Shown in pieces: positions 19,970-34,374 of a DNA stretch of 64,000 nt. The notes under the pieces are model-generated. The model did not search any database, was not told the DNA's origin, and was given only the letters and a program-made list of their open reading frames with translations. The position numbers were made by a program, and so were the translations under genes. The number at the start of each line of letters is the position of its first letter. Position 1 is the first letter of the stretch. Origin of the DNA: Candidatus Marsarchaeota archaeon (GTDB taxonomy: Archaea; Micrarchaeota; Micrarchaeia; Micrarchaeales; CABMGC01); assembly GCA_023476545.1 (NCBI GenBank), contig JAMCYP010000014.1, forward strand, positions 2,297-66,296, read 5' to 3'.

Positions 19970-20236
19970 TTAGTTTTGTTGGAAATCTGATGCGCTTTTG
20001 CCGTGCGGAAACGCCTTGCCGTTTGACGCCTCTACGGGCAGACCCGTCTCTTCAGATATCTTGGCCAGTTCCGCAAGCTCTATCTGCCTGTCGGTGAACA
20101 GTTCAACGTATTCTATGTTCCCAAGCTTCGTCATCCTTACCTTGAACGTGAGCTGCTGGAACATGCCGCTGCGGTTTACGCGCAGCTTGATGCTGCCCTG
20201 TCTTATAACCTCCTCTGCCTTACTTGAAAGTTTCAT
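19970..20236 (-). CDS. hypothetical protein
   Basis: 88 aa from inner ATG 20236 (MKLSSKAEEV...), which leaves a 65-nt divergent promoter region with nuoA. No motif recognised. Confidence 0.5.
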   Translation of the reverse strand: MKLSSKAEEVIRQGSIKLRVNRSGMFQQLTFKVRMTKLGNIEYVELFTDRQIELAELAKISEETGLPVEASNGKAFPHGKSASDFQQN

Positions 20237-20301
20237 GCAATCTGTACCTGCGTTAGTTAAATGCCAACGAATATTAAGATTTTGAGCCATTACCTTATCT
20301 G

Positions 20302-20658
20302 ATGGCTGACCAATACCTGCAGATGCTAATTTTTGCCGCGATAGCGGTCTTCGTCCCCTTATCCACGCTGATGTTCTCCAAGATGGTAAGGCCTAGGAGC
20401 GACAACAATGATGTGAAGACGCTAACATACGAGAGTGCGGAGCAGAGCGTGGGGCAGAAGGTGGAGGTGATGCACGAGTACCTGCACTATTTCGTCGCGT
20501 TCTTGGCTTTTGAGATAATAGGAGTGATCGTTATAATATGGTCTACATTTGCAAGGAGCGTGCAGAGCTCAAGCGGCCAGTATATCGTGCTGCTGGTCGT
20601 GTTCGGCTTTGTGTTTGAGGTATTCCTGCTGGGAATGAGCAGGAGCAAGGTGAGATAG
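20302..20658 (+). CDS. nuoA: complex I-like subunit A (NuoA/ND3)
   Basis: 118 aa, 3 TM, with a TYESAEQ...FLAFEIIG core. First gene of the nuo block. Confidence 0.85.
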   Translation: MADQYLQMLIFAAIAVFVPLSTLMFSKMVRPRSDNNDVKTLTYESAEQSVGQKVEVMHEYLHYFVAFLAFEIIGVIVIIWSTFARSVQSSSGQYIVLLVVFGFVFEVFLLGMSRSKVR

Positions 20659-20802
20659 ATGGAAGTATTGAGATGTGGATGCAGGGTAGAAAACGGAACC
20701 TTCATAGTGGGAGACAACTGCGCGTACTGCAAGGAGTGCAACACAGTAGCGGAGCTCCACCCGTTTGGGGATATGAGGCTGGACGAACTGGAGGGGAAGT
20801 GA
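20659..20802 (+). CDS. small Cys-rich ORF between nuoA and nuoB, absent from the ORF track (<60 aa)
   Basis: Own translation: MEVLRCGCRVENGTFIVGDNCAYCKECNTVAELHPFGDMRLDELEGK*. Its ATG abuts the nuoA TAG, AGGTGA lies upstream, and it ends 4 nt before the nuoB ATG. Confidence 0.45.
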   Translation: MEVLRCGCRVENGTFIVGDNCAYCKECNTVAELHPFGDMRLDELEGK

Positions 20803-20806
20803 GAGC

Positions 20807-21376
20807 ATGGAAGCGCCGCCTTATGAAAAGGAGAGGTTTCTCAACGCCGAGAAGGAGATGAGCGAGCTCGTGCGCGCCTCGATGTCTAAGTACGAGAGCA
20901 AGCCGAACGTTATGTTTGCAAAGCTCTCGGAGGTAAGCAAGGCGCTCTCGAAAGGGCTGGTGAACTGGTCCAGGGTCAGGTCGCTCTGGCCCCTGCAGTT
21001 CGGACTCTCGTGCTGCGCAATGGAGCTCATGGACTTCGGGTCCGCAAGAATAGACGCCGAAAGGCGCGGATACCTATTCTTCAGGGCGACGCCCAGGCAG
21101 GCGGACGTGATGGTCGTCGCTGGCTGGGTCACCAAGTCGATGGTGCCTGAGATAAAACGGCTCTATGAGCAGATGCTTACGCCCAAATACGTGATTGCTT
21201 ACGGGGAATGCGCTACTGCCGGGGGGCCCTGGTGGGAGAGCTACAACATAATCAAGGGCATAGACCAGGTGCTGCCGGTGGATGTGTACGTCGTGGGCTG
21301 CCCGCCCAAGCCCGAGAATCTTTACGCAGGGTTCATGAAACTGCAGAAGAAGATTGGTGGAGAGATTGAAGATTGA
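20807..21376 (+). CDS. nuoB: complex I-like subunit B (NuoB, N2 Fe-S)
   Basis: GLSCCAMELM and GCPPKPE cysteine motifs. Confidence 0.95.
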   Translation: MEAPPYEKERFLNAEKEMSELVRASMSKYESKPNVMFAKLSEVSKALSKGLVNWSRVRSLWPLQFGLSCCAMELMDFGSARIDAERRGYLFFRATPRQADVMVVAGWVTKSMVPEIKRLYEQMLTPKYVIAYGECATAGGPWWESYNIIKGIDQVLPVDVYVVGCPPKPENLYAGFMKLQKKIGGEIED

Positions 21377-21734
21377 GAGAAACGAGATCACGCAGAAGAT
21401 CAGCGCAATGAAGGCGCAGGGCTACTCGTATCTCATCAAGATAACGGCTGTCGATTATGAGAAGTACATAGAGATAGTGTACATGCTCAGAAACATGGAG
21501 CAGAACAAGGACGAGACGCTGGAGGTTGACGTGGATCCGTCAGATGCGTGGATACCGACCGTAATTGACCAGTTTGACGCGGCGGACTGGTACGAGAGAG
21601 AGCTCTTCGAGATGTTCGGGGTGCAGGTCAAGGGCAGGCACGTGGAAAGGCTGCTGCTTGAGAAGTGGGACGGGAAGCCTGCTCCGCTCAGAAAGAACTT
21701 CGTATGGAACGGACCGTACGAGACTGGTAGTTGA
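21354..21734 (+). CDS. nuoC: complex I-like subunit C (NuoC), short form
   Basis: AADWYERELFEMFGVQVKG motif; 126 aa. The TTG start is uncertain (alternatives at 21357 and 21366). Confidence 0.85.
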   Translation: MVERLKIERNEITQKISAMKAQGYSYLIKITAVDYEKYIEIVYMLRNMEQNKDETLEVDVDPSDAWIPTVIDQFDAADWYERELFEMFGVQVKGRHVERLLLEKWDGKPAPLRKNFVWNGPYETGS

Positions 21735-21735
21735 G

Positions 21736-22827
21736 ATGGTTACTAGAATCAACATAGGACCTGTGCACCCGAGCACTCACGGAGTGCTTCGCCTTGTGGC
21801 AGACATAGACGGCGACACCGTGGTCAACCTCGAGCCGCACATCGGTTTCCTGCACAGGGGTGTCGAGAAGCTCGTGGAGACCAGAATGTACATGCAGAAT
21901 CCTCCGTACATGGAGAAGCTGGACTACGTGGCCCCCATGTCGTACGACGAGGCATACGTGGCTACGGTCGAGAAGGCGATGGGCGTGGAGGTGAAGGAGA
22001 GGGCGCAGTGGGTGCGTACCATACTGCTTGAGCTGCAGAGGATAGCAAGCCACCTGCTCTGGCTCGGCACGATGGCAAACGACGTGGGCCAGTTCTTCAC
22101 CGTGTTCATGTGGACGTTCACCGACAGGGACAGGATACTGCGCCTCCTTGAAGAGGCGTCGGGAGCAAGGATGTTCTACGTCAACATGAGGATTGGAGGC
22201 CTGATACGCGACCTGCCTCCCGGATTCGACGAACGCGCACGCGAAGTGCTTAGCTATATTGAAAAGAAGATGAAGAAGTACGAGGACTTTCTGGAGAAGG
22301 ACCCGCTCTTCACTGAAAGGATGAAGGGCGTGGGGGTGCTGAGCCGGGAGAGGGCCATAGCGCTGGGGGTCACTGGCCCTGTGCTTAGGGCGTCTGGGAT
22401 AAACTATGACGTAAGGAAGGACAACCCATACTATGTGTACGACAAGCTTGGCTTCCAGACACAGGTAAGGAGCGATGGGGACTGCTTTGCGAGGTACAAG
22501 GTCAGGATGCTTGAGATGACTGAGAGCATCAGGCTCGTTAGAGCCGCGCTGGACAAGATTCCAGAGGGAGATGCGCTTGGAATGCCCGTGAAGCTCATAC
22601 TGCCGAGCGCGAAGAACAGGATGGTGACGCTCAGCAGGGAGCTCCCGCGGGGCGAGTGCCTCATGTATATGGTGGCAGACTCGCAGAGGCCGTATAGGCT
22701 GTCTATTCGCTCGCCCACTTTCATCAACCTCGCCGCGCTGAAGGAGATGTCGAGGGGCTGCAAGACCGCGGACATATTCGCCATAAGCGGCAGCCTGGAT
22801 CTCATAATGGGAGATGTGGACAGGTGA
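21736..22827 (+). CDS. nuoD: complex I-like subunit D (NuoD, 49 kDa)
   Basis: MVTRINIGPVHPSTHGVLRL... Start at ATG 21736, 1 nt after the nuoC stop; the tracked 21565 start is a shadow extension. Confidence 0.95.
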   Translation: MVTRINIGPVHPSTHGVLRLVADIDGDTVVNLEPHIGFLHRGVEKLVETRMYMQNPPYMEKLDYVAPMSYDEAYVATVEKAMGVEVKERAQWVRTILLELQRIASHLLWLGTMANDVGQFFTVFMWTFTDRDRILRLLEEASGARMFYVNMRIGGLIRDLPPGFDERAREVLSYIEKKMKKYEDFLEKDPLFTERMKGVGVLSRERAIALGVTGPVLRASGINYDVRKDNPYYVYDKLGFQTQVRSDGDCFARYKVRMLEMTESIRLVRAALDKIPEGDALGMPVKLILPSAKNRMVTLSRELPRGECLMYMVADSQRPYRLSIRSPTFINLAALKEMSRGCKTADIFAISGSLDLIMGDVDR

Positions 22828-22828
22828 G

Positions 22829-23827
22829 ATGGTGCCGATACTCTCTTTGGCTTCAAGCTACCTGAACCTGACAGGAACCGCCGCAACCATAGTCGACACG
22901 CTCGTGTACGCCATAGCCGTGTCCGTACTGATAATAGCCTTTGATTACATCTTCGGGTGGCTGGAACGCAAGACGATAGCAAAGATACAGCGAAGGCACG
23001 GACCAACGTATGCCGGAAAGTACGGACTGCTGCAGAACATGGCTGATTTCGTGAAGTTGCTCGCTAAGGAGCACGTAGCCCCAAAGAGGGCCGACAAGCT
23101 GCTGTTCCTGAGCACTATACCCACGATGCTTGCCCTGACCATCTTTCTGGTTTTCCTGATCCCGCTCGCCCCAACGCTGATCGAGACAAACGTAGGCCTC
23201 GGACTGCTGGTTGTCTTCGTGCTTCTCTCGTTCATGCCGTTGATAATATTCGCAAACGGTTTCGGGAGCGGAAACAAGTTTGCTGCGATAAGCGCCCAGC
23301 GTTCCGTGGTGATGCTGCTCAGTTACGAGGTGCCTCTCATCTTCGTCATAGCAGCGGTTGGCGCGCTGGGAGGAAGCTACAGCCTTGCGGGGCTCGTAGG
23401 AGCTCAGAACCCGTGGTGGTTCGTAGTGCTCATGCCGATAGGTTTCGTCGTGTTCTTCATAGCGATGCTGGCTGAGGTCGAGAGGCCTCCATTCGACATA
23501 CGGGAGGCTGACAACGAGCTCATAGCTGGTTGGCTTACTGATGTGAGCGCACCCTATTACACCCTCGCGCTCTTTCTCGATTACAGCCGCATGCTCCTCG
23601 GCAGCCTGCTCATAGCAATACTCTTCTTCGGAGGATGGAGCGGCCCTCTGCTGCCGCCTTTCGTATGGCTGCTGCTGAAGGCTTTCGTGATAAGCTTCTT
23701 CATAATGATAATCAGGGCCACGATGGTGCGTATGAGGATAGACAGGTTGCTGCGTTTCGGATGGGCGCTCCTGCTGCCGTTATCTCTGATTAATTTAATA
23801 CTTACCTATCTAGTATTTATCAGGTGA
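22829..23827 (+). CDS. nuoH: complex I-like subunit H (NuoH/ND1)
   Basis: Polytopic; GLLQNMADFVKL and ERPPFDIREADNELIAGW motifs. Confidence 0.95.
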   Translation: MVPILSLASSYLNLTGTAATIVDTLVYAIAVSVLIIAFDYIFGWLERKTIAKIQRRHGPTYAGKYGLLQNMADFVKLLAKEHVAPKRADKLLFLSTIPTMLALTIFLVFLIPLAPTLIETNVGLGLLVVFVLLSFMPLIIFANGFGSGNKFAAISAQRSVVMLLSYEVPLIFVIAAVGALGGSYSLAGLVGAQNPWWFVVLMPIGFVVFFIAMLAEVERPPFDIREADNELIAGWLTDVSAPYYTLALFLDYSRMLLGSLLIAILFFGGWSGPLLPPFVWLLLKAFVISFFIMIIRATMVRMRIDRLLRFGWALLLPLSLINLILTYLVFIR

Positions 23828-23831
23828 CCCA

Positions 23832-24197
23832 ATGGTTTTGAAACCGCTGCTTGAAAGCATAAAGAGTCTGGGAGAAGAGAGGTTCACCGTTGAGTTTCCC
23901 GAGACCAGGGAGGCCCTCGACGACCGCGAGAGGTACCTGTTCAGACTGGACATGGACACATGCATAAGCTGTTCAGCGTGCGAACGCATCTGCCCGAACA
24001 AGACAATAACCATGGTGGAGGTCATAACCGCGCGTGGGCCGAAGGTCATGCCCCAGATAGGGATAGAACGCTGCCTCTTCTGCGGGCTCTGCGAGGAGGT
24101 CTGCCCTCCCAAATGCCTGACTCTCACGAAAGGCTATGAGTTCGAGGAGTACGACAAGAGGAAGTTCATCAGGAGGCCCGAGGAACTGCAGGGATAG
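23832..24197 (+). CDS. nuoI: complex I-like subunit I (NuoI, 2x[4Fe-4S])
   Basis: CISCSACERICP and CLFCGLCEEVCP ferredoxin motifs. Confidence 0.95.
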   Translation: MVLKPLLESIKSLGEERFTVEFPETREALDDRERYLFRLDMDTCISCSACERICPNKTITMVEVITARGPKVMPQIGIERCLFCGLCEEVCPPKCLTLTKGYEFEEYDKRKFIRRPEELQG

Positions 24198-24200
24198 GCG

Positions 24201-24674
24201 ATGCCTTTCGACCTCATATCAGCAGTCGTTGCCGCCATAACCGTAATATCAGGAACCACACTCTTCCTCCAGGGGAGGCTTACACGGTCCGTAATCTTAC
24301 TTGCGATGGCCGCGGTCGGCAGCTCTCTCATCTTTCTCTATCTTGGGCAGACCCTAGTCGCGCTGCTGCAGCTGCTCGTGTTCGTCGGTGGTCTGTCTAC
24401 ATACCTCATCGTAGCCATTGCGGCTGAGGAGAAGAGAGCGAGTATGCGCAGCGGAGTCGCGTTCGCTGTGGCCGCTGTGCTTATCTCGGCGGGGCTGCTG
24501 CTTGCGCTGGCGGGGCTCCCCGAGGCTCAGCCCTTAGGAAACAGCTTCTCTGCTGCGGCCGAGACGGCGTTCTCGAGCTCATACGGCCTGCTGTTCGTAT
24601 CGGCGTTCCTGCTGTTCGCCACAGCGATAGGCAGCGTGGTTGTCATAAAGAGGTTTGCAAAGCTGGTGGTCTGA
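24201..24674 (+). CDS. nuoJ: complex I-like subunit J (NuoJ/ND6)
   Basis: 157 aa, hydrophobic, with LLQLLVFVGGLSTY; position between nuoI and nuoK. Confidence 0.85.
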   Translation: MPFDLISAVVAAITVISGTTLFLQGRLTRSVILLAMAAVGSSLIFLYLGQTLVALLQLLVFVGGLSTYLIVAIAAEEKRASMRSGVAFAVAAVLISAGLLLALAGLPEAQPLGNSFSAAAETAFSSSYGLLFVSAFLLFATAIGSVVVIKRFAKLVV

Positions 24675-24976
24675 TGATAAGTCTCCTGATAGTTGCCGCG
24701 GTTGTCCTTCTTGCTGTAGCGCTAGCCGGCATAATCTCCGACAGGCATTTCGTGGTGATAATGCTGGCCGTAGAGCTCATGCTTATCGCAAGCAGCATCC
24801 TGCTGGTATACTTCTTCGCCTCGGCGCAGGACCCTGGATCTTCCGCTGTCACGATGATAATCGCCATATGGACCGTGGCCGCAGTAGAGGTGATAACGCT
24901 CATAACGTTCTACGTGTTCATGAAATCCAGAGGCTTCGACTTCGATGTCACGAGGCTCTCGAAACTAAAGTGGTAG
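24674..24976 (+). CDS. nuoK: complex I-like subunit K (NuoK/ND4L)
   Basis: 100 aa, 3 TM with membrane Glu residues (LAVELML, AAVEVI). 1-nt overlap with nuoJ. Confidence 0.9.
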   Translation: MISLLIVAAVVLLAVALAGIISDRHFVVIMLAVELMLIASSILLVYFFASAQDPGSSAVTMIIAIWTVAAVEVITLITFYVFMKSRGFDFDVTRLSKLKW

Positions 24977-24977
24977 C

Positions 24978-26732
24978 TTGACGCCTTTCATAATACTTGT
25001 TCCTTTGCTCGTTGCGATATTCGCAATAGCGCTGGACAGGAGCTACAGCAGGGCAAAATACGTTGCCGCTGCGGCAGCCCTTCTCAGCCTGGCACTATTT
25101 CCATTGGTGGGCAGCGGAACCCAGAGCACCAGCTGGTTCTCCGTGGGCAGTACGTCAATTACGCTGACAACATCCGTGCAACCGCTGAACTCGCTGCTGC
25201 TGCTTGTGGTAATGGCGATAGGCGTACTCATAATGGTGTACTCTTGGGGGTACATGAACCTGCCGAGCGAGCAGAAACGCTACTACATAGAGATGCTTGC
25301 GTTCGAGGCGGCGATGCTGACGTTCGCGATGGCCGGAGACTTCATAGTGCTGTTCATAGCATGGAGCTTCCTCAGCATGACGAGCTACCTCCTGATCGGG
25401 TTCTGGAGTAACAGGGAGAGGGCCACTGCGGCCGCAAGGAAGGCGATCACCGTGGTGCTGATAGGAGACATTGCGCTTCTGGCATCGATAGTCATGTTCC
25501 AGAACATCTTCGGAAGCCTTCAGTTCAGCGTAATACTCTCGGGAATAGGAGGAAACCCAGTAGCCGCTCTTCCGGTGGCGCTTCTCTTCGTAGCGGTGAT
25601 GGCAAAGTCTGCGCAGTTTCCACTGCAGGAATGGCTGGCTGACGCAATGGAAGGCCCAACTCCTGTGTCGGCGTACCTGCACAGCAGCACGATGGTAAAG
25701 GCAGGAGTCTTCATAGTGCTCGTGCTCTTCCCGCTCTTCCAGGCAGCAGGCCTGCTGCAGGCGATACTTGTAATAGGGGCCATAACAGTCTCTATTGCGA
25801 TCTTTGCCGCTGCTACAGAGAACCACGTAAAGCGTGTGCTTGCCTACTCTACTGTGGAAGAACTGGGACTTATGCTTGTGGCGATAGCCAGCAACGCGCT
25901 CCTTGCGGCAATTTACTTCTTCTTCGTGCAGAGCTTCTACAAGGCGCTCCTGTTCTTCAGCGCTGGCGCCTCAATGAAGGCCACCGACAGCGAGAATCTT
26001 GACGAGATAAAGGGAATGAGCAGCAACAAGCTCCTCCTCATAACCACCGTCTTCGGGGTGCTTGCTCTTGCAGGATTTGTCCCGTTCGGGGGATTCTTTG
26101 CGGATGTGGGCCTTGACTATGCCTTCTCCACAAACCTGGTTACGTACGCACTAATATCCCTGGTCAGCCTGACCACCAGCTTCTTCATATTCAGGTGGTT
26201 CTTCCTGCAGGCCAGGAAAGGCGCGAACAGGCAAGCTCAGCTCAACTACTCGGCCACGCCACGAAGTATGAGCTACAGCATGGCGATTCTTGCCGTAGCC
26301 GCACTAGCGTCAAGCGCGGTCTTCTTCTTCGTATCAGGGATATTCACAGGCGAGGGCGGGCTTCCGATAGGCTCCAGCCTTACGATGAGCGATGCGGTGA
26401 TAGAGACCGCGCTGGTTGCGATTGGCGCTGCAATAGGGTTCTTCCTCTATCTGAGGAAGAGGAAGACTGCACAGCCAAACCGGCTTACGCGCCCAGCCTA
26501 CACCGCGCGCGCGGTTAATGCTGCGTACTTCCACTTTGCAGGGTTTGTAGAGGCGATCGCAGAGGCAATGGATTACACTGATATGAAGATAAACGGAGCG
26601 TTTGACTGGGTAGGCCACTTCACGATTGGGATTGCAAGAGGGGCAAGAAGGTTCGCGAGCGGAAGCATAAACGCATATGTGGCGCTCTTTGCGATAGGGA
26701 TGGTGGTTCTGGTCATAGTGGTGGTCATCTGA
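24978..26732 (+). CDS. nuoL: complex I-like subunit L (NuoL/ND5, antiporter-like)
   Basis: 584 aa with MAKSAQFPLQEWLADAMEGPTPVSAYLHSSTMVKAG. TTG start. Confidence 0.95.
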   Translation: MTPFIILVPLLVAIFAIALDRSYSRAKYVAAAAALLSLALFPLVGSGTQSTSWFSVGSTSITLTTSVQPLNSLLLLVVMAIGVLIMVYSWGYMNLPSEQKRYYIEMLAFEAAMLTFAMAGDFIVLFIAWSFLSMTSYLLIGFWSNRERATAAARKAITVVLIGDIALLASIVMFQNIFGSLQFSVILSGIGGNPVAALPVALLFVAVMAKSAQFPLQEWLADAMEGPTPVSAYLHSSTMVKAGVFIVLVLFPLFQAAGLLQAILVIGAITVSIAIFAAATENHVKRVLAYSTVEELGLMLVAIASNALLAAIYFFFVQSFYKALLFFSAGASMKATDSENLDEIKGMSSNKLLLITTVFGVLALAGFVPFGGFFADVGLDYAFSTNLVTYALISLVSLTTSFFIFRWFFLQARKGANRQAQLNYSATPRSMSYSMAILAVAALASSAVFFFVSGIFTGEGGLPIGSSLTMSDAVIETALVAIGAAIGFFLYLRKRKTAQPNRLTRPAYTARAVNAAYFHFAGFVEAIAEAMDYTDMKINGAFDWVGHFTIGIARGARRFASGSINAYVALFAIGMVVLVIVVVI

Positions 26733-28102
26733 TGCTGGAAGTCTATGCGCTTGGAGCCATGCTAGCGGCCCTTGCGATAGGCAACGTGCTGCTTAGCGCA
26801 GCAGGAAGGAAGCTTTGGCAGCTGGCTTTCAACGTTGTGGTGCTGGGCGCGCTAATCCCGGTAAGTTATCTCCTGCTGGATAGCAACTCCGTCTACTTCG
26901 GAATCACTCTGATAAGCCAGTTCTCTGCGTTCTTCTTCATCCTCTTTGCAGCATCGATGCTACTTCTCAACCTCCTCGCCTATTCGAGGGCGAAAGGCTA
27001 CGGCAACTTCGCCCTGCTCGCGTCGTTCGGGATGGTCGGGATGTATACTGTAGTGTCATCGACGTCGCTGATAGGCATCTTCCTGGGACTCGAACTCATG
27101 AGCATACCCAGCGCGTTCATAGTGCTGCTGTCCAAGAGGGACAGCATCGAAGCCGCGACCAAGCTTTTCATAATGGCCTCGATAGCCATAGCGTTTATCT
27201 CGTTCGCGATCGTGCTGGTCTACGGAGCGGTAAACTCGCTAACGCTGACAGGAGCGCAGCAGAGCGGCGTCATGTACTTCGCTCTCGCTCTGTTCATAGC
27301 ATCCCTGGGGTTTGAGGCGTCTGTGTTCCCGTTCAACGTGCTGCTTCCTGACGTATACCAGGGATCCGCAGGTTACGCTACAGCGATGCTTGGAGGCCTC
27401 AACAAAAAGGTGGGATTGGTTGCGCTTATGCAGGTGCTCGTGCTGATATTCATCGCCTTCCATCTCGCGTTCGTCATTGTTGCGGCTCTTGCGGTGCTGA
27501 CTATGTTCTACGGAAACCTCGTAGCGCTTATGCAGACGAATTTGAAGAGGTTGCTCGCCTATTCCTCGATATCGCAGGCAGGCTACATACTTATCGGGAT
27601 TGCGGTCGCGACGGATGCCGGGCTGGGCGCCAGCATCTTCCAGATTTTCGCTCATGCGTTCCTGTTCATAGGCGCAATGGCCATTGTTTCGTGGCTGGAG
27701 AGCAGGGGCAGGGAAGACATCAATGGGCTGCTCGGACTTTACAAGGAGAACAGGTTTGCGGCCATAGCGCTGACCGTGTTCATGCTCTCATTTGCAGGGC
27801 TGCCGTTCACCACGGGCTTCGTCGGAAAGTTCCTGATCTTCCTGAGCGCGGTGAACAACAACCTAGTATGGCTCGCGGCTCTCGGAGTAGTAAACAGCGT
27901 TATCTCGATCTTCTACTACGCCAAGGCCATTACTGCGATCTACACGAACAAGTATGGAGCCTACCACCTTAAGCTAGACATACCCACGCTTGCCGTTGTG
28001 ACGGTCTGCCTTGCTGTAACGATAATCATAGGAGTATACCCTCAGCCAGTCATACAGCTTGCAACTGGAGCAGGGAGTGCCCTGCTGGCCGGTCTGCCGT
28101 GA
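26732..28102 (+). CDS. nuoN: complex I-like subunit N (NuoN/ND2, antiporter-like)
   Basis: 456 aa with KRLLAYSSISQAGYILIG. 1-nt overlap with nuoL. Confidence 0.88.
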   Translation: MLEVYALGAMLAALAIGNVLLSAAGRKLWQLAFNVVVLGALIPVSYLLLDSNSVYFGITLISQFSAFFFILFAASMLLLNLLAYSRAKGYGNFALLASFGMVGMYTVVSSTSLIGIFLGLELMSIPSAFIVLLSKRDSIEAATKLFIMASIAIAFISFAIVLVYGAVNSLTLTGAQQSGVMYFALALFIASLGFEASVFPFNVLLPDVYQGSAGYATAMLGGLNKKVGLVALMQVLVLIFIAFHLAFVIVAALAVLTMFYGNLVALMQTNLKRLLAYSSISQAGYILIGIAVATDAGLGASIFQIFAHAFLFIGAMAIVSWLESRGREDINGLLGLYKENRFAAIALTVFMLSFAGLPFTTGFVGKFLIFLSAVNNNLVWLAALGVVNSVISIFYYAKAITAIYTNKYGAYHLKLDIPTLAVVTVCLAVTIIIGVYPQPVIQLATGAGSALLAGLP

Positions 28103-30886
28103 CTAGCGCTTGCCGTACCTGCTGAAGAACGCAAGATACCTGCCCAGCACCATCGCTGGCGCAGACGGCCTCGCCTTCTGGATCAGCACCATTATGTCTC
28201 CAAGCTTTATGTTCAGCTCGTTGCCGGATATCAGGCTTGCTTCCAGCGTGTTAAGCTTTACCTGCCTGCATATGTTTGCTATGTCTGCTCCTGTGTATCC
28301 TTCTGTAGAAGCGGCAAGCTTGGCGAAGTCCACGTCCACGTCCAGAGGTGCCTTCTCGAGGTTCAGCTCGAAGATCTTAGCCCTGTCCTCAGCGCCGGGA
28401 GGCGGCATAAAGATGAGCCTGTCAAACCTGCCCGAACGGAGTATGGCAGGATCCAGCGCATCGGGCCTGTTTGTCGCTGCTACTACCACAACCCCAGTGG
28501 TGTCCTTTATCTTGTCGAACTCCTCCAGGAACTCTCCAGCCAGCTGCAGGCCGTTCTGGTGCGCCGTGTCACGGGAAGGGACTATCGCATCTATCTCGTC
28601 CACGAAGACTATCGCGGGCGCGTTCTCCTTGGCGCGGTCGAATATCTCCTTTACGGCAGCGGTGGCCTGGCTGGGCCCGTACTTCGATATGTCATAGCCT
28701 GATATGGAAAGCACGTGCACGTCTCCTATCTCGTTGGCCACAGCCTGCATGAGCATCGTCTTGCCGGTACCGGGAGGGCCGAATAGGAGTATGCCCTTTA
28801 TGTTTCCTATGTCATACTTCTTGAGAAGCTCTGGATGCAGTATGGGCACCTCTACTGCTTCGTGAAGCGCAGTCTTCGCGTCTTCGGCGTCGACAACGTC
28901 ATCAAGGGTTATCCTCTTCTCGTCCTCCACCTTGCTCTCAGGGTGCATCCTCCTCTCATAGTCTAGCCTGAATGTGTTGTACTCCTCTAGCTGGGCGAGC
29001 GATGTTGACGGTTTCGTGCCCTTGATCACGTGCACCAGGTCTGACATTTTTATCGCCAGCACCTCACGTTTTGATACTGCCTTGTCTCCAACCTGCCTGC
29101 TGACCTCCTCGCAGATGTTCTTTATGTCTGCAGCAGAGAACCTGTTCGTGAGGCTCGCGAGCTTCGGATAGTCAATGTCCTTGGCGATGGGAAGGTTTGT
29201 GAGATAGTGCTGGAAGATCTTCTGCCTGCCGGGCTGGTCCGGCAGCGGCATGAAAAGTATCTTGTCGAACCTTCCTGGTCTGAGGATGGCGGGATCGAGC
29301 AGCTGCGGCACGTTTGTGGCTCCCACGATGGCAACGTCCGATACTGCCTTGAAGCCGTCCATCTCGCTGAGCAGCGTGGTTATGAGCTCCATCCTTCCGC
29401 CGCTGTCCTGCCTGTCCCTCCTGCCCGCGATGCTGTCTATCTCGTCGAAGAAGAGGACGCATGGCGCATGCTTCTTCGCGGTTATGAATATCTTCGACAG
29501 CGCCTGCGAGCCTTCGCCGGCGTACGGGGAGAGAAGCGACGAGGCGCTAACGTAGAAGAATCCGGCGCGGATCTCGTTAGCCAGAGCCCTCATTATTAGC
29601 GTCTTTCCAGTTCCTGGAGGGCCGAACAGCAGTATTCCCTTGGCTGGCTTGACGTTGTACGCTCCAGATATCTCCCTGTGCTCTATGGGGCCGAGTATAG
29701 CCTCCTTCAGCTCCTGCTTCGTCTCGTCGTAGTTGGCCACATCGGCCAGAGTCTCTGAGGTACCGGTGGTGAGGTCTTGCAGGGCCACTCCGAACTTTCC
29801 AAGTATGTCGCGCTTCATCACATCGAGCGCCTGCACCACCTCTATGTCCATAGATTCGAGGGCGAAAAGGAGCACGGGGGTCGCGATGAAGCTGACCAGC
29901 ACCAGTAGGTTGAAGTCCATTCCTTGCATTCTTGCAAAGATAAATGCGGATACCGGAATGACGACGCCGAACAGGCTGGCGATGGCTCCTTTGTATGGCG
30001 AGCGGCTCTTGATCGCGTAGTTGGCTACGCTGAACGCCACGAATATCCACACGATTAGCTGCAGCAGCGTGTACTGGATGTCATAGGCAATGGCAGCTCC
30101 GGCATAGAAGAACGCGTTGAACAGGTTGCTGACCACCTCCGTGCTGACGAACGTGCCAAGAGACGATGAGAGGGCGCTGAAGAAGTTGCCTATGCTGGCC
30201 GCAGGCTTGGTAACCGCGAGGTACTGCTCAAGAGGATGCCCTTGGATCAGCGCGTGGCCCTGGAGCGAGTTGTAGATTATCGGGGAGGCAACAGGCACGT
30301 TGGCCAGGTTCGAGACCATCGCCACTATCAAAATCACCAAAACGCCTATCACTGCGCTCCTTCTGAAGCCGAGGACAAGCACCGCCAGGATGAATCCAGG
30401 AATCTCAAACATCAGCCCCAGGTAAGAGAGGGGGAGCGATGCCAGAGCATAGGCGTACGCTATCGACCTGTAGTGTTTGTACCCAAGGAAGAGCGATGCG
30501 CTTATTATCAGAGTGACTATCCATGCGAGCAACGGTGCCTGGTATATGATCATCGGCAGGGTAAGCAGCAGCAGCCCCATCAGCCCGACCGCGGGTATGA
30601 GATAGGTAAGCGCGAAGACGGTTACGGCAAGAGCAATGAAGACAGGAAGCGGGAAGAAGGGAAAAGCTATGCCAAGGCTGAGGAAGGCGAACGTCGTGGC
30701 TATGGAATCGTGGAAGTTCTTGTTGGCCATTATCTGCTTCAGGAAGTCCTTCAGCCAGTAAACTGAGAGAGGCAACCGTATTCGCATGCGTGATGGCGAG
30801 TCATCGTCATTCTGAGCGTAGCTGTGCTGCTGCGCACCGCCTCCCCTCTTCGTGCCCCCGCTCCTCGGCATAACCTTTACTCTCAT
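28103..30886 (-). CDS. membrane-anchored tandem AAA+ ATPase (Cdc48/VAT-like D1-D2 with a polytopic N-terminal domain)
   Basis: 927 aa. Residues ~55-355 hold about 8-10 hydrophobic helices. Two full AAA modules follow: GPPGTGKT twice (DNA ~29600-29625 and ~28757-28780), FFDEID/FVDEID, and ATNxPxxLDPAILRxGRFD twice. Confidence 0.9.
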   Translation of the reverse strand: MRVKVMPRSGGTKRGGGAQQHSYAQNDDDSPSRMRIRLPLSVYWLKDFLKQIMANKNFHDSIATTFAFLSLGIAFPFFPLPVFIALAVTVFALTYLIPAVGLMGLLLLTLPMIIYQAPLLAWIVTLIISASLFLGYKHYRSIAYAYALASLPLSYLGLMFEIPGFILAVLVLGFRRSAVIGVLVILIVAMVSNLANVPVASPIIYNSLQGHALIQGHPLEQYLAVTKPAASIGNFFSALSSSLGTFVSTEVVSNLFNAFFYAGAAIAYDIQYTLLQLIVWIFVAFSVANYAIKSRSPYKGAIASLFGVVIPVSAFIFARMQGMDFNLLVLVSFIATPVLLFALESMDIEVVQALDVMKRDILGKFGVALQDLTTGTSETLADVANYDETKQELKEAILGPIEHREISGAYNVKPAKGILLFGPPGTGKTLIMRALANEIRAGFFYVSASSLLSPYAGEGSQALSKIFITAKKHAPCVLFFDEIDSIAGRRDRQDSGGRMELITTLLSEMDGFKAVSDVAIVGATNVPQLLDPAILRPGRFDKILFMPLPDQPGRQKIFQHYLTNLPIAKDIDYPKLASLTNRFSAADIKNICEEVSRQVGDKAVSKREVLAIKMSDLVHVIKGTKPSTSLAQLEEYNTFRLDYERRMHPESKVEDEKRITLDDVVDAEDAKTALHEAVEVPILHPELLKKYDIGNIKGILLFGPPGTGKTMLMQAVANEIGDVHVLSISGYDISKYGPSQATAAVKEIFDRAKENAPAIVFVDEIDAIVPSRDTAHQNGLQLAGEFLEEFDKIKDTTGVVVVAATNRPDALDPAILRSGRFDRLIFMPPPGAEDRAKIFELNLEKAPLDVDVDFAKLAASTEGYTGADIANICRQVKLNTLEASLISGNELNIKLGDIMVLIQKARPSAPAMVLGRYLAFFSRYGKR

Positions 30887-30929: not shown

Positions 30930-31029
30930 CCCGCAGTAGCTCAACGGCAGAGCGCTCGCCTGTAGTTTTTGACTGCTTCTATCAAGAGAAGAAAGCGAGA
31001 TGTTGCTGGTTCAAATCCGGCCTGCGGGA
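30930..31029 (+). tRNA. tRNA-Tyr (anticodon GUA) with a canonical-position intron
   Basis: Hand fold: acceptor CCCGCAG/CTGCGGG (C1-G72, the archaeal Tyr identity pair), D arm GCTC/GAGC, anticodon stem CTCGC/GCGAG, CT-GTA-G then the intron, T arm GCTGG-TTCAAAT-CCGGC. Confidence 0.85.
30966..30993 (+). other. tRNA-Tyr intron (~28 nt, after position 37; boundaries +/-2 nt)
   Basis: Sequence between G37 and the 3' anticodon-stem strand: tttttgactgcttctatcaagagaagaa, containing a CTTCT/AGAAG hairpin. Confidence 0.7.
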
Positions 31030-32961: not shown

Positions 32962-34374
32962 CTAGGCGAACGGCGCGAGGAGTAGGAATGGCGCGATACC
33001 CAGTGTGATCGTTGAGATAGCGAGGAAGACCATCGCAGCCTTTATGCCAATTCCAGGGCTCGAGAAAGGCTCGATCGCTTTTGACGCGCTGAAGAACGCT
33101 CGCTCGATCACCAGGAAGAAGAGTGCTCCGATTATCAGCACTGCGGCAAGCGGCACCACACCCCCAGCGCTGTATGCGCTGAAAGCTCCAATGAAGACAA
33201 GCAGGTCGCCCACAAAGCCGCTGGTCAGCGGTATGCCAACAAGCGCAAATGTTCCGAAGACAAAGCCGTAAGCCAGTGAAGGAAAGTTCTTCACCACTCC
33301 TTTTATCTTTGCCACCAGCATCGTGCCGTATACCTCGTCTAGCGTTCCGACGATGAGGAAGAGAAGCGATATGGCGATTCCGTGGCTCAGCATCGCGTAT
33401 ATCCCGCCCACTATCCCCACCCGGGTCAGCGAGGCGATTCCGAGAGACGCGATTCCCATGTCAACGATGCTTGTGTAGGCGATCATGCGCTTCAGGTGCG
33501 CCTGACGCATCGCCACCAGCGCGCTGTAAAGGGCGGATATCCCGAAAAGCACCGCAAGGGGAAGCGCGTAGCTAGATGCTATTGGCAGCATGAGAAAGAC
33601 GAGAAGCAGGCCGTATCCGCCCAGCTTCAGAAGTATGCCGGCAAGTATCATGCTTCCTGTGGTAGGCGCCTCGGTGTGCGCGTCTGGCAGCCAGCTGTGG
33701 AATGGGAACACTGGTATCTTTATCAGGAATGCCGTGCCCAGGAGCACGAGTGCCAGAAGCTGCAGGCTCTGCGGCATCGTGCCCGCCTGCGATATCACCG
33801 ATGCTATCTCGAAGGTATGAGCAGGCAGACCGGAGTATATCACAAGTATGCCCAGCAGGAGCAGCAGGCTTGCAGCAAGAGAGTATATGAGGAACTTTAT
33901 CGCCGCGTACCTCCTGTCGTAGCCACCGAAGATGTAGATTATGAAGAACATGGAGATCTCGCTGATCTCAAAGAAGATGTAGAACAGGAAGAGGCTGCCT
34001 GCAAAGAAGACACCAAGCACCGAGCCCGATACCAGCAGGAAGAGCAGGCCGTATATGCGCTGCGACTCTTTGATGAAGCTCCTGGCAACCAGCGCAGAGG
34101 CGAGTATCACTATGGCGGCCATCACGGCGAATATGTTGCTGTACTGAGTCAGTGCAAGGCTGAAGGTTATGCCAAGCGTCTGTATGTATGTCTGGGAGAA
34201 CGAGAGCGGCGCAAAACCTGAGGTAAGGCCTACGTACGCTGAGCCTATCACTGCGAAGAAAACGGCGATGGAAGAGACAAGCGCAACATTGAACGAGTGG
34301 CGCTCAGGGAGGACAAGCAGCGGAATGACGAACAGGAAGGGAAGGAGTACTGAGAGCAAGAGCAATGGGAACAT
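32962..34374 (-). CDS. nuoM: complex I-like subunit M (NuoM/ND4, antiporter-like), detached from the nuo block
   Basis: 470 aa with FHSWLPDAHTEAPTTGSMILAGILLKLG and LKRMIAYTSIVDMG (compare AYSSVSHMG). Confidence 0.88.
   Translation of the reverse strand: MFPLLLLSVLLPFLFVIPLLVLPERHSFNVALVSSIAVFFAVIGSAYVGLTSGFAPLSFSQTYIQTLGITFSLALTQYSNIFAVMAAIVILASALVARSFIKESQRIYGLLFLLVSGSVLGVFFAGSLFLFYIFFEISEISMFFIIYIFGGYDRRYAAIKFLIYSLAASLLLLLGILVIYSGLPAHTFEIASVISQAGTMPQSLQLLALVLLGTAFLIKIPVFPFHSWLPDAHTEAPTTGSMILAGILLKLGGYGLLLVFLMLPIASSYALPLAVLFGISALYSALVAMRQAHLKRMIAYTSIVDMGIASLGIASLTRVGIVGGIYAMLSHGIAISLLFLIVGTLDEVYGTMLVAKIKGVVKNFPSLAYGFVFGTFALVGIPLTSGFVGDLLVFIGAFSAYSAGGVVPLAAVLIIGALFFLVIERAFFSASKAIEPFSSPGIGIKAAMVFLAISTITLGIAPFLLLAPFA

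Follow-up and report, generated by a model that had tools for sequence, protein, structure and literature searches.

A conserved Cys5-His microprotein gene between nuoA and nuoB in a lineage of Micrarchaeota, and its relatives in other DPANN archaea

Introduction

The genes for a complex-I-like enzyme lie in a stretch of 64,000 nucleotides (nt), here called the window, from an archaeal genome labelled Candidatus Marsarchaeota archaeon (contig JAMCYP010000014.1), and its nuoA and nuoB genes are separated by an open reading frame (ORF) of 47 codons that canonical nuo operons lack. This raises the question of whether the ORF is a gene, and if so whether its product works with the Nuo-like complex or has a role of its own. 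An initial annotation of the window had described a hidden Cys-rich ORF and suggested that it encodes an accessory subunit, or an assembly or metal-delivery factor. The ORF is not in fact hidden, as NCBI holds the identical protein of 47 amino acids (aa) as hypothetical protein M1286_02030. It is thus known, as a hypothetical protein only; what is new is the family to which it belongs, and our search of the literature found no report of the gene or of that family.

Conservation of the ORF between nuoA and nuoB

The ORF occupies 20659..20802 of the forward strand (ATG at 20659, TGA at 20800-20802, stop included) and its translation is MEVLRCGCRVENGTFIVGDNCAYCKECNTVAELHPFGDMRLDELEGK, a soluble product with five Cys residues at positions 6, 8, 21, 24 and 27 in the pattern CxC-x12-CxxCxxC. 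Comparison with related genomes makes it almost certain that this is a genuine translated gene under purifying selection. By our estimate the chance of finding an open frame of 47 codons in a gap of 148 nt is roughly 10%, so that openness alone is not significant, and the weight of the frame comes from its conservation across orthologs.

A scan for relatives of NuoA, which is blind to the presence of the small ORF, gave five species-level genomes, all labelled Ca. Micrarchaeota, and all five have an intact ORF of 46-48 codons in the slot. More loci came from scanning metagenomes, from a protein search for NuoA and from additional look-ups, and the nuoA-x-nuoB arrangement is now seen in 12 distinct loci (the window, L001, L003, L006, L009, L010, L011, L012/L026, L014, L025 and L031), with NuoA identity to the window going down to 60%. 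Among these 12 sampled loci of the NuoA clade there is none without the small gene and none in which it has moved, and in no case is the ORF of 46-48 codons interrupted by a stop. Two proteins of 46 and 48 aa in these relatives are 73-77% identical to the microprotein, and their contigs show nuoA, the small gene and then nuoBCDHIJKL and onwards.

The substitution pattern is that of a protein-coding gene. In pairwise comparisons among three species the ratio of nonsynonymous to synonymous substitution rates (dN/dS) is 0.08-0.16 for the small ORF, as against 0.10-0.12 for nuoA and 0.03-0.06 for nuoB, with the synonymous differences near saturation (proportion of synonymous differences, pS, 0.62-0.72). 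When ten orthologs are pooled over 41 gap-free codons, the ratio of nonsynonymous to synonymous differences (pN/pS) is 0.18 in the annotated frame and 1.07 and 1.79 in the two shifted frames, and variable columns fall mostly at third codon positions (35 of 41, compared with 19 of 41 for first and 8 of 41 for second positions). The initial annotation's view of the ORF as a real gene is thus borne out, with orthologs in the same slot at 11 further loci.

The same gap has a competing forward-strand ORF at 20673..20861, Arg-rich and of 62 aa, which the initial annotation had suspected of being a shadow frame. It lies in the +2 frame, that with a pN/pS of 1.79, is broken by stops in six of the ten orthologs and has no Pfam match, and by these comparisons it is a shadow frame and not a gene. 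Rfam has no known RNA family in the nuoA-nuoB gap.

Junctions with nuoA and nuoB

The flanking genes are as the initial annotation had them. Upstream is nuoA (20302..20658, forward strand, 118 aa; Pfam Oxidored_q4, E 1.4e-7; orthologs 60-83% identical), whose stop codon TAG (20656-20658) directly abuts the ATG of the microprotein gene, and downstream is nuoB (20807..21376, forward strand, 189 aa; Pfam Oxidored_q6, E 4e-27; start region compared across relatives), whose ATG follows the microprotein stop after a gap of 4 nt, GAGC. The codons for the end of NuoA (...SRSKV) contain a Shine-Dalgarno-like AGGTGA (20648..20653, forward strand), 5 nt upstream of the ATG of the small gene, and its role in translation of the microprotein is putative. 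A similar motif for nuoB, GGAGGGG (20790..20796, forward strand), can be read inside the 3' end of the microprotein coding sequence, and it too has a putative function. On re-reading the sequence we found the ORF, junctions, upstream motifs and five-Cys pattern all to be as first described.

This operon-internal placement, with spacing of the kind associated with coupling, is conserved across the whole lineage. Most loci have the nuoA stop directly against the ATG, as TAGATG (for example in L031) or TGAATG. L009 and L012 have 2 nt between stop and start (TGAAGATG and TGAAAATG respectively), which changes the frame relative to nuoA, and in L014 there is an overlap of the ATGA type (ATGATG). The offset to nuoB varies too, being +1 in the window and L001 while the two genes are in frame in L003. 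An (A/G)GG(G)TG motif is present 5-7 nt upstream of the ATG in all 11 listed loci, and the same bases encode a conserved K-V at the end of NuoA. Since the frame offsets to nuoA and nuoB differ among species, the ORF is an independent cistron, and its translation as a readthrough extension of NuoA, as an N-terminal extension of NuoB or as a fusion with either is ruled out.

These data also bear on the more general proposal that the ORF does not encode a protein in its own right, and is instead a leader or regulatory upstream ORF for nuoB, an extension of NuoA or NuoB by readthrough, a gene fragment in decay or the precursor of a ribosomally made peptide. The ORF is indeed very short and wedged between two cistrons, and its frame in the window and in several relatives is that of nuoA, with the TAG between them. 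However its amino-acid sequence is under strong purifying selection, the frame to nuoA differs in L009, L012 and L014 while that to nuoB varies among loci, there are free-standing homologs far from nuo, and a compact fold is predicted (predicted local distance difference test score, pLDDT, 92). None of the neighbours is a radical-SAM enzyme or other maturase, and SCIFF and the other NCBIfam models give no match. We regard all of these proposals as very improbable, the conservation data having effectively refuted them.

A family of Cys5-His microproteins

The microprotein belongs to a family of proteins of about 40-100 aa in DPANN archaea that is previously undescribed. HMMER, run exhaustively with a three-sequence profile against 1.84 billion representative proteins, gave 29 clusters at E<=1e-3, nearly all of 39-98 aa, and a profile search of a collection of 5.8 billion proteins gave 72 proteins, none with a Pfam domain. 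Few are named, and these few are listed as hypothetical proteins from Nanoarchaeota, Pacearchaeota, Micrarchaeaceae or simply "archaeon". Another member is on a contig of 2.1 Mb, and it is from the named members only that we judge the family to be spread across DPANN. The window sequence at 20659..20799, in six-frame translation, matches the hidden Markov model (HMM) of the family (alignment A5) with an E of 5.2e-23 and 79 bits, and that HMM finds no second copy within the 64-kb window.

In an alignment of 69 sequences nine columns are invariant (C6, C8, C21, C24, E26, C27, H34, P35 and F36), and the window protein has all nine. M1, L4, G7, G13, F15, G37 and R40 are near-invariant. The family signature can be written L-x-C-G-C-x(11-13)-C-x(2-5)-C-x-E-C-x(6-7)-H-P-F-G-x-K-R-L, in which 2 to 5 residues separate the third Cys from the fourth. 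The C-terminal tails differ by subgroup, being acidic in the nuo clade and FK(M/F)NIG or DxxFK(L/I)(E/D) in others. Three members have tails of other kinds (P0011, P0063 and P0010), two of them ending in a His-rich GFHNHEH, which fits metal handling, and one having a hydrophobic C-terminal segment like a membrane anchor. This pattern suggests a conserved metal-binding core with partner-specific tails.

Scans of Pfam, NCBIfam, PHROGs and PADLOC, with the window protein and up to 69 members, gave no significant match. The window protein itself has no Pfam match at E<=1, a best PHROGs E of 0.03 and nothing in PADLOC. A viral or mobile origin was considered and rejected, as no relatives were found on IMG/VR contigs, either with peptide patterns or with a degenerate DNA pattern for C-x-E-C-x6-HPFG.

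Predicted fold and resemblance to known metal-binding proteins

AlphaFold2, run on the family alignment, gives a model with a pLDDT of 92.1 and a predicted template modelling score of 0.68. The model, a confident one, has a knuckle at C6-x-C8 and directly after it a beta-hairpin at 9-16. A helix spans 25-32, its N-terminal end carrying C24 and C27, and residues 41-44 make a short C-terminal helix. In treble-clef zinc fingers a knuckle with two ligands and a beta-hairpin are followed by a helix that gives two ligands from its N-terminus, and the predicted fold of the microprotein looks like one of these. It is probably a metal-binding mini-domain. We suggest that C6, C8, C24 and C27 would hold one metal ion, most likely Zn2+, in treble-clef style, and that C21, H34 and E26, which are equally invariant, may form a second site, either facing a partner or bridging. 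A Foldseek search with the model gave no matches in the PDB and none below E = 1.7 in BFVD, although this search has low power for proteins so short.

Archaeal zinc-finger microproteins include the CPxCG microproteins of Haloferax. The microprotein resembles mini zinc fingers of the treble-clef or zinc-knuckle type in its size (these being of about 45-60 aa) and in having, by prediction, a Cys knuckle, a beta-hairpin and a helix with two Cys at the N-terminus. It differs from them in that the knuckle is CxC and not CPxCG or CxxC, and in that five Cys and one His are invariant together with a Glu and HPFG; it matches no Pfam zinc-finger family, and Foldseek adds nothing.

The classical motif of [4Fe-4S] ferredoxins, CxxCxxCxxxCP, opens with CxxCxxC. 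The microprotein resembles [4Fe-4S] ferredoxins and rubredoxins in having this triplet and in being small and acidic, and its gene lies beside an enzyme thought to be fed by ferredoxin (PMC5864196). In the microprotein, however, the fourth Cys of the ferredoxin motif and its Pro are missing, the first spacing of the triplet is 2-5 in the family, with CxxCxxC in the window clade, and there is no match to Fer4. Rubredoxins have two CxxCG knuckles (PF00301), which is unlike CxC...CxxCxxC, and again there is no Pfam match. The helix predicted at the Cys motif fits a zinc finger better than a ferredoxin or rubredoxin.

There is also a faint likeness to cytidine deaminases. All six close orthologs match the cytidine deaminase model NF004064 weakly, the score being 15.5 bits against a cut-off of 74, and a PDB profile search gave only cytidine deaminase chains (3ijf and 4wig) with an E of about 2. 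The likeness covers about 20-35 residues, GC(R/N)(V/I)EN...C-x-E-C...H, in which C24 is the counterpart of the Zn-ligand Cys, and E26 of the catalytic Glu, of CAE. We reject this identity and take the resemblance to be by chance, as the scores are far below cut-off, only about a quarter of the domain is covered, PCxxC is missing and VEN is not conserved in the family. By sequence, then, the microprotein is a full member only of the newly defined Cys5-His family.

Family members outside the nuo operon

The relatives in other genomes are found in many settings. In L016/L017, where the protein is 70% identical over 83% of the query, the gene is between two unknown ORFs of 140 aa and beside a transposase and DNA polymerase B. 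In L018 (Micrarchaeaceae) an Nre gene precedes it by 25 nt and a NUDIX gene follows, in L020/L021 (Nanoarchaeota) it is near GlnRS, in L022 it is near RpoE, Spt4, S24e, S27e and an Mrr-like gene, and in L023 near thiolase and DUF35-type genes. That of L024 (Pacearchaeota) overlaps the stop of a DUF378 gene and precedes an AIRS-domain gene, and that of L013 follows a GFO_IDH_MocA oxidoreductase. Pfam searches on the neighbours of these non-nuo members show no common theme, and all-against-all BLAST of their flanking ORFs finds no common partner except in L022 and L024. In these two loci (L022 4340..6625 and L024 4201..6021) the microprotein gene adjoins genes for an AIRS-domain (HypE/SelD/ThiL-like) protein and a Metallophos phosphoesterase, the latter 68% identical, and the sharing may reflect mere relatedness of the two genomes.

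In a neighbour-joining tree, which is weak as it is built on about 45 columns, the nuo-embedded copies form one group, and L013 is nested close by; P0052, which is nuo-embedded, is just outside, and the Micrarchaeota proteins P0077 and P0078 are elsewhere. The simplest reading is that a pre-existing DPANN gene was captured once into the nuo operon of one lineage of Micrarchaeota and then inherited vertically.

Does the microprotein act with the Nuo complex?

Lineage-specific small accessory subunits are well known for complex I and NDH-1, examples being Nqo15 and Nqo16 of Thermus, NdhO, NdhP, NdhQ, NdhS and NdhV of cyanobacteria, and the Zn-binding NDUFS6 of mitochondria. The genes of some accompany those of the core, NDUFS6 holds its Zn with Cys and His residues, and NdhS adapts a complex without an EFG module to ferredoxin. 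The microprotein is like these in being small and non-core, and in that its nuo-embedded form is restricted to one lineage. It is unlike them in having no sequence or fold similarity to any, and in belonging to a family found also in organisms without complex I; in the case of NDUFS6 the relevant domain, zf-CHCC (PF10276), has no match among the 69 members at E<=10.

The account that we favour, and to which we would give not quite an even chance, is that the protein is a metal-binding microprotein that acts with the Nuo-like complex. The gene would share a transcript with nuoA and nuoB and be coupled to them in translation, so that the product would be made in step with the complex, and in this lineage it would act on the cytoplasmic face, near the C-terminus of NuoA and NuoB. 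Its role would be that of a small accessory module, giving structural or assembly support or serving as a docking or redox adaptor for an enzyme without the NADH-input module. The microprotein has diverged in step with its neighbours, being 66% identical to that of L031 where NuoA is 66% and NuoB 71% identical. The functional tie to the complex, taken as a claim on its own, is tentative and rather short of even.

Several observations weigh against such a tie. Upstream of nuoA, the genes for a tRNA deacylase, PCNA and PriX and an 88-aa ORF show equal synteny throughout this clade; with the whole neighbourhood conserved in this way, conserved position is to be expected from relatedness alone and is weak evidence for a functional link. 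The microprotein has no homology to the core subunits NuoA-N or to accessory or assembly factors, none of the 69 members has a match to a complex-I family even at E<=10, and the PDB profile search gave no complex I chain. Strict phyletic co-occurrence with nuo is not seen either, as the gene is in all 12 loci of the NuoA clade and also in non-nuo contexts in Nanoarchaeota and Pacearchaeota. In the loci examined outside that clade it is nowhere near nuo, the contexts being unrelated and mutually inconsistent, and they include those of other Micrarchaeota (L016 near PolB, L018 and L013). The overlap with the DUF378 stop in L024 shows that it can be tightly packed behind an unrelated gene too, so that tight spacing is not special to nuo. 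Most DPANN archaea lack an electron transport chain (PMC6349945), and the retention of the family among them argues that its ancestral function is not specific to complex I. The metal site and its ligands are also a matter of prediction, from residue pattern and secondary structure. With regard to the accessory, assembly or metal-delivery factor of the initial annotation, then, what stands is that the gene is real and that its invariant Cys and His residues suggest metal binding, whereas the role with Nuo is unsupported and the family extends well beyond nuo.

A rival account is that the gene is a passenger in the operon, which landed in the nuoA-nuoB spacer in an ancestor of the lineage and has been kept there, not by work for Nuo, but because the genome is compact and the gene needed. 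The protein would then do the same general, complex-I-independent job as its relatives, for example as a zinc-finger adaptor for nucleic acid or protein. We see this as quite possible, if somewhat less so than an even chance, and about equally likely as a complex-I-linked role. It would accord with the varied and unrelated contexts elsewhere (DNA polymerase B, Nre and NUDIX, GlnRS, ribosomal and Spt4 genes, and an AIRS-domain protein), where the non-nuo loci have no neighbour in common save the Metallophos and AIRS-like genes of L022 and L024, with the scarcity of electron transport chains in DPANN archaea, with the equal synteny of the unrelated PCNA and PriX, and with the presence of a single family copy in the 64-kb window. 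However insertion behind the first cistron and ahead of the second in an essential multisubunit operon, where the nuoA stop abuts its start and the ribosome-binding motif of nuoB is within its 3' end, ties expression to that of Nuo in all 12 loci sampled, the gene has been neither lost nor moved in any of them, and its divergence tracks that of NuoA and NuoB. A different proposal is that the Cys5-His set binds iron, as a rubredoxin-like Fe(Cys)4 site or a small Fe-S cluster held by CxxCxxC and a distal Cys, making the family a general low-molecular-weight redox carrier of DPANN archaea that serves here as electron donor or docking adaptor of the EFG-less complex. The match of CxxCxxC to the start of the ferredoxin motif is in keeping with this, and five Cys and a His invariant over 69 members are more ligands than one Zn site needs; a general carrier would also account alike for the varied contexts and for capture by nuo, and the operon has no NuoEFG, ferredoxin being the proposed and presumed electron donor of the NuoEFG-less Micrarchaeota complex (PMC5864196). 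Nevertheless none of the 69 members matches a Fer4 or rubredoxin model of Pfam even at E<=10, the middle Cys pair varies from Cx2C to Cx5C and the terminal CP of ferredoxins is missing, and in the AlphaFold2 model the helix that follows the knuckle and hairpin has C24 and C27 at its N-terminus, the usual layout of a zinc treble clef. We consider a redox carrier unlikely, and are equally doubtful of the related suggestion, by analogy with NdhS, that the microprotein would be a new lineage-specific, redox-active or metal-bearing subunit on the peripheral arm, recruited from a DPANN-wide family of mini-carriers and supplying or gating electron input.

The operon and its surroundings

The remaining genes of the operon follow on the forward strand, each with a Pfam match: nuoC (21354-21734), nuoD (21736-22827, start checked), nuoH (22814-23827), nuoI (23832-24197), nuoJ (24201-24674), nuoK (24674-24976), nuoL (24978-26732) and nuoM (26732-28102). 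The layout is thus nuoA-x-BCDHIJKLM, with no nuoE, nuoF or nuoG found by Pfam among the operon genes. A third antiporter-like gene, of NuoN type and 28-30% identical to NuoL and NuoM, is outside the operon, about 5 kb downstream on the reverse strand (32962..34374). Between it and the operon are a gene for a Cdc48-like double-AAA ATPase (28103..30886, reverse strand) and two tRNA genes. One of these, found by Rfam at 30930..31029 on the forward strand, is 100 nt long against a model of 71 positions and is not called by ARAGORN, and it is probably an archaeal tRNA with an intron.

The alignment shows that NuoB keeps the CC, GxC and GCPP cysteines that bind cluster N2. At about 21220..21240 the window has GECATAGG where two relatives have GECATCGG, Ala for Cys, with the presumed N2 ligands CC, GEC and GCPP all kept. 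The N-terminus M-E-x-P-P-Y-x-K-E-R-F is conserved, and nuoB starts with ATG in all relatives except one. The exception is L001 (6122..6200, on the same contig as L008), where an N-terminal segment of NuoB (...EEVAPYDRERFLNAEEE) is present with no ATG, GTG or TTG upstream of the internal ATG chosen by the gene caller. Between the upstream stop and that internal ATG only ATT or ATA could serve as start, and the cause may be an error of sequencing, the use of a non-canonical start or a NuoB that is shorter.

Directly upstream of nuoA and divergently transcribed is a small ORF (19970..20290, reverse strand), with 65-77% identity in all five related loci compared and no Pfam family. Its true start is probably M19 (MKLSSKAEE...), giving 88 aa, and the product could be a regulator or another nuo-linked protein.

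With regard to the name of the organism, the NCBI label of the protein identical to the microprotein is Ca. Marsarchaeota archaeon and the syntenic relatives are all labelled Ca. Micrarchaeota, so that one of the labels is probably wrong.

Implications

Many archaea have complex-I-like enzymes without NuoEFG, the NADH-input module, and the route by which electrons reach these is largely a matter of guesswork. A conserved microprotein of metal-binding appearance, encoded inside such an operon, is a concrete candidate, open to test, for an additional subunit, a helper in assembly or an adaptor for electron input. A stable co-culture of Micrarchaeota exists (PMC5864196), and proteomic tests are thus feasible. 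Should the gene prove instead to be a passenger, it would be a caution that placement in an operon of a compact genome does not alone prove shared function.

The gene and its family are both new and solid, while the functional reading is weakened by the wider distribution of the family. Quite apart from nuo, we now have a newly defined and sharply conserved Cys5-His microprotein family across DPANN archaea, and a protein so strictly conserved in such small genomes is likely to be important.

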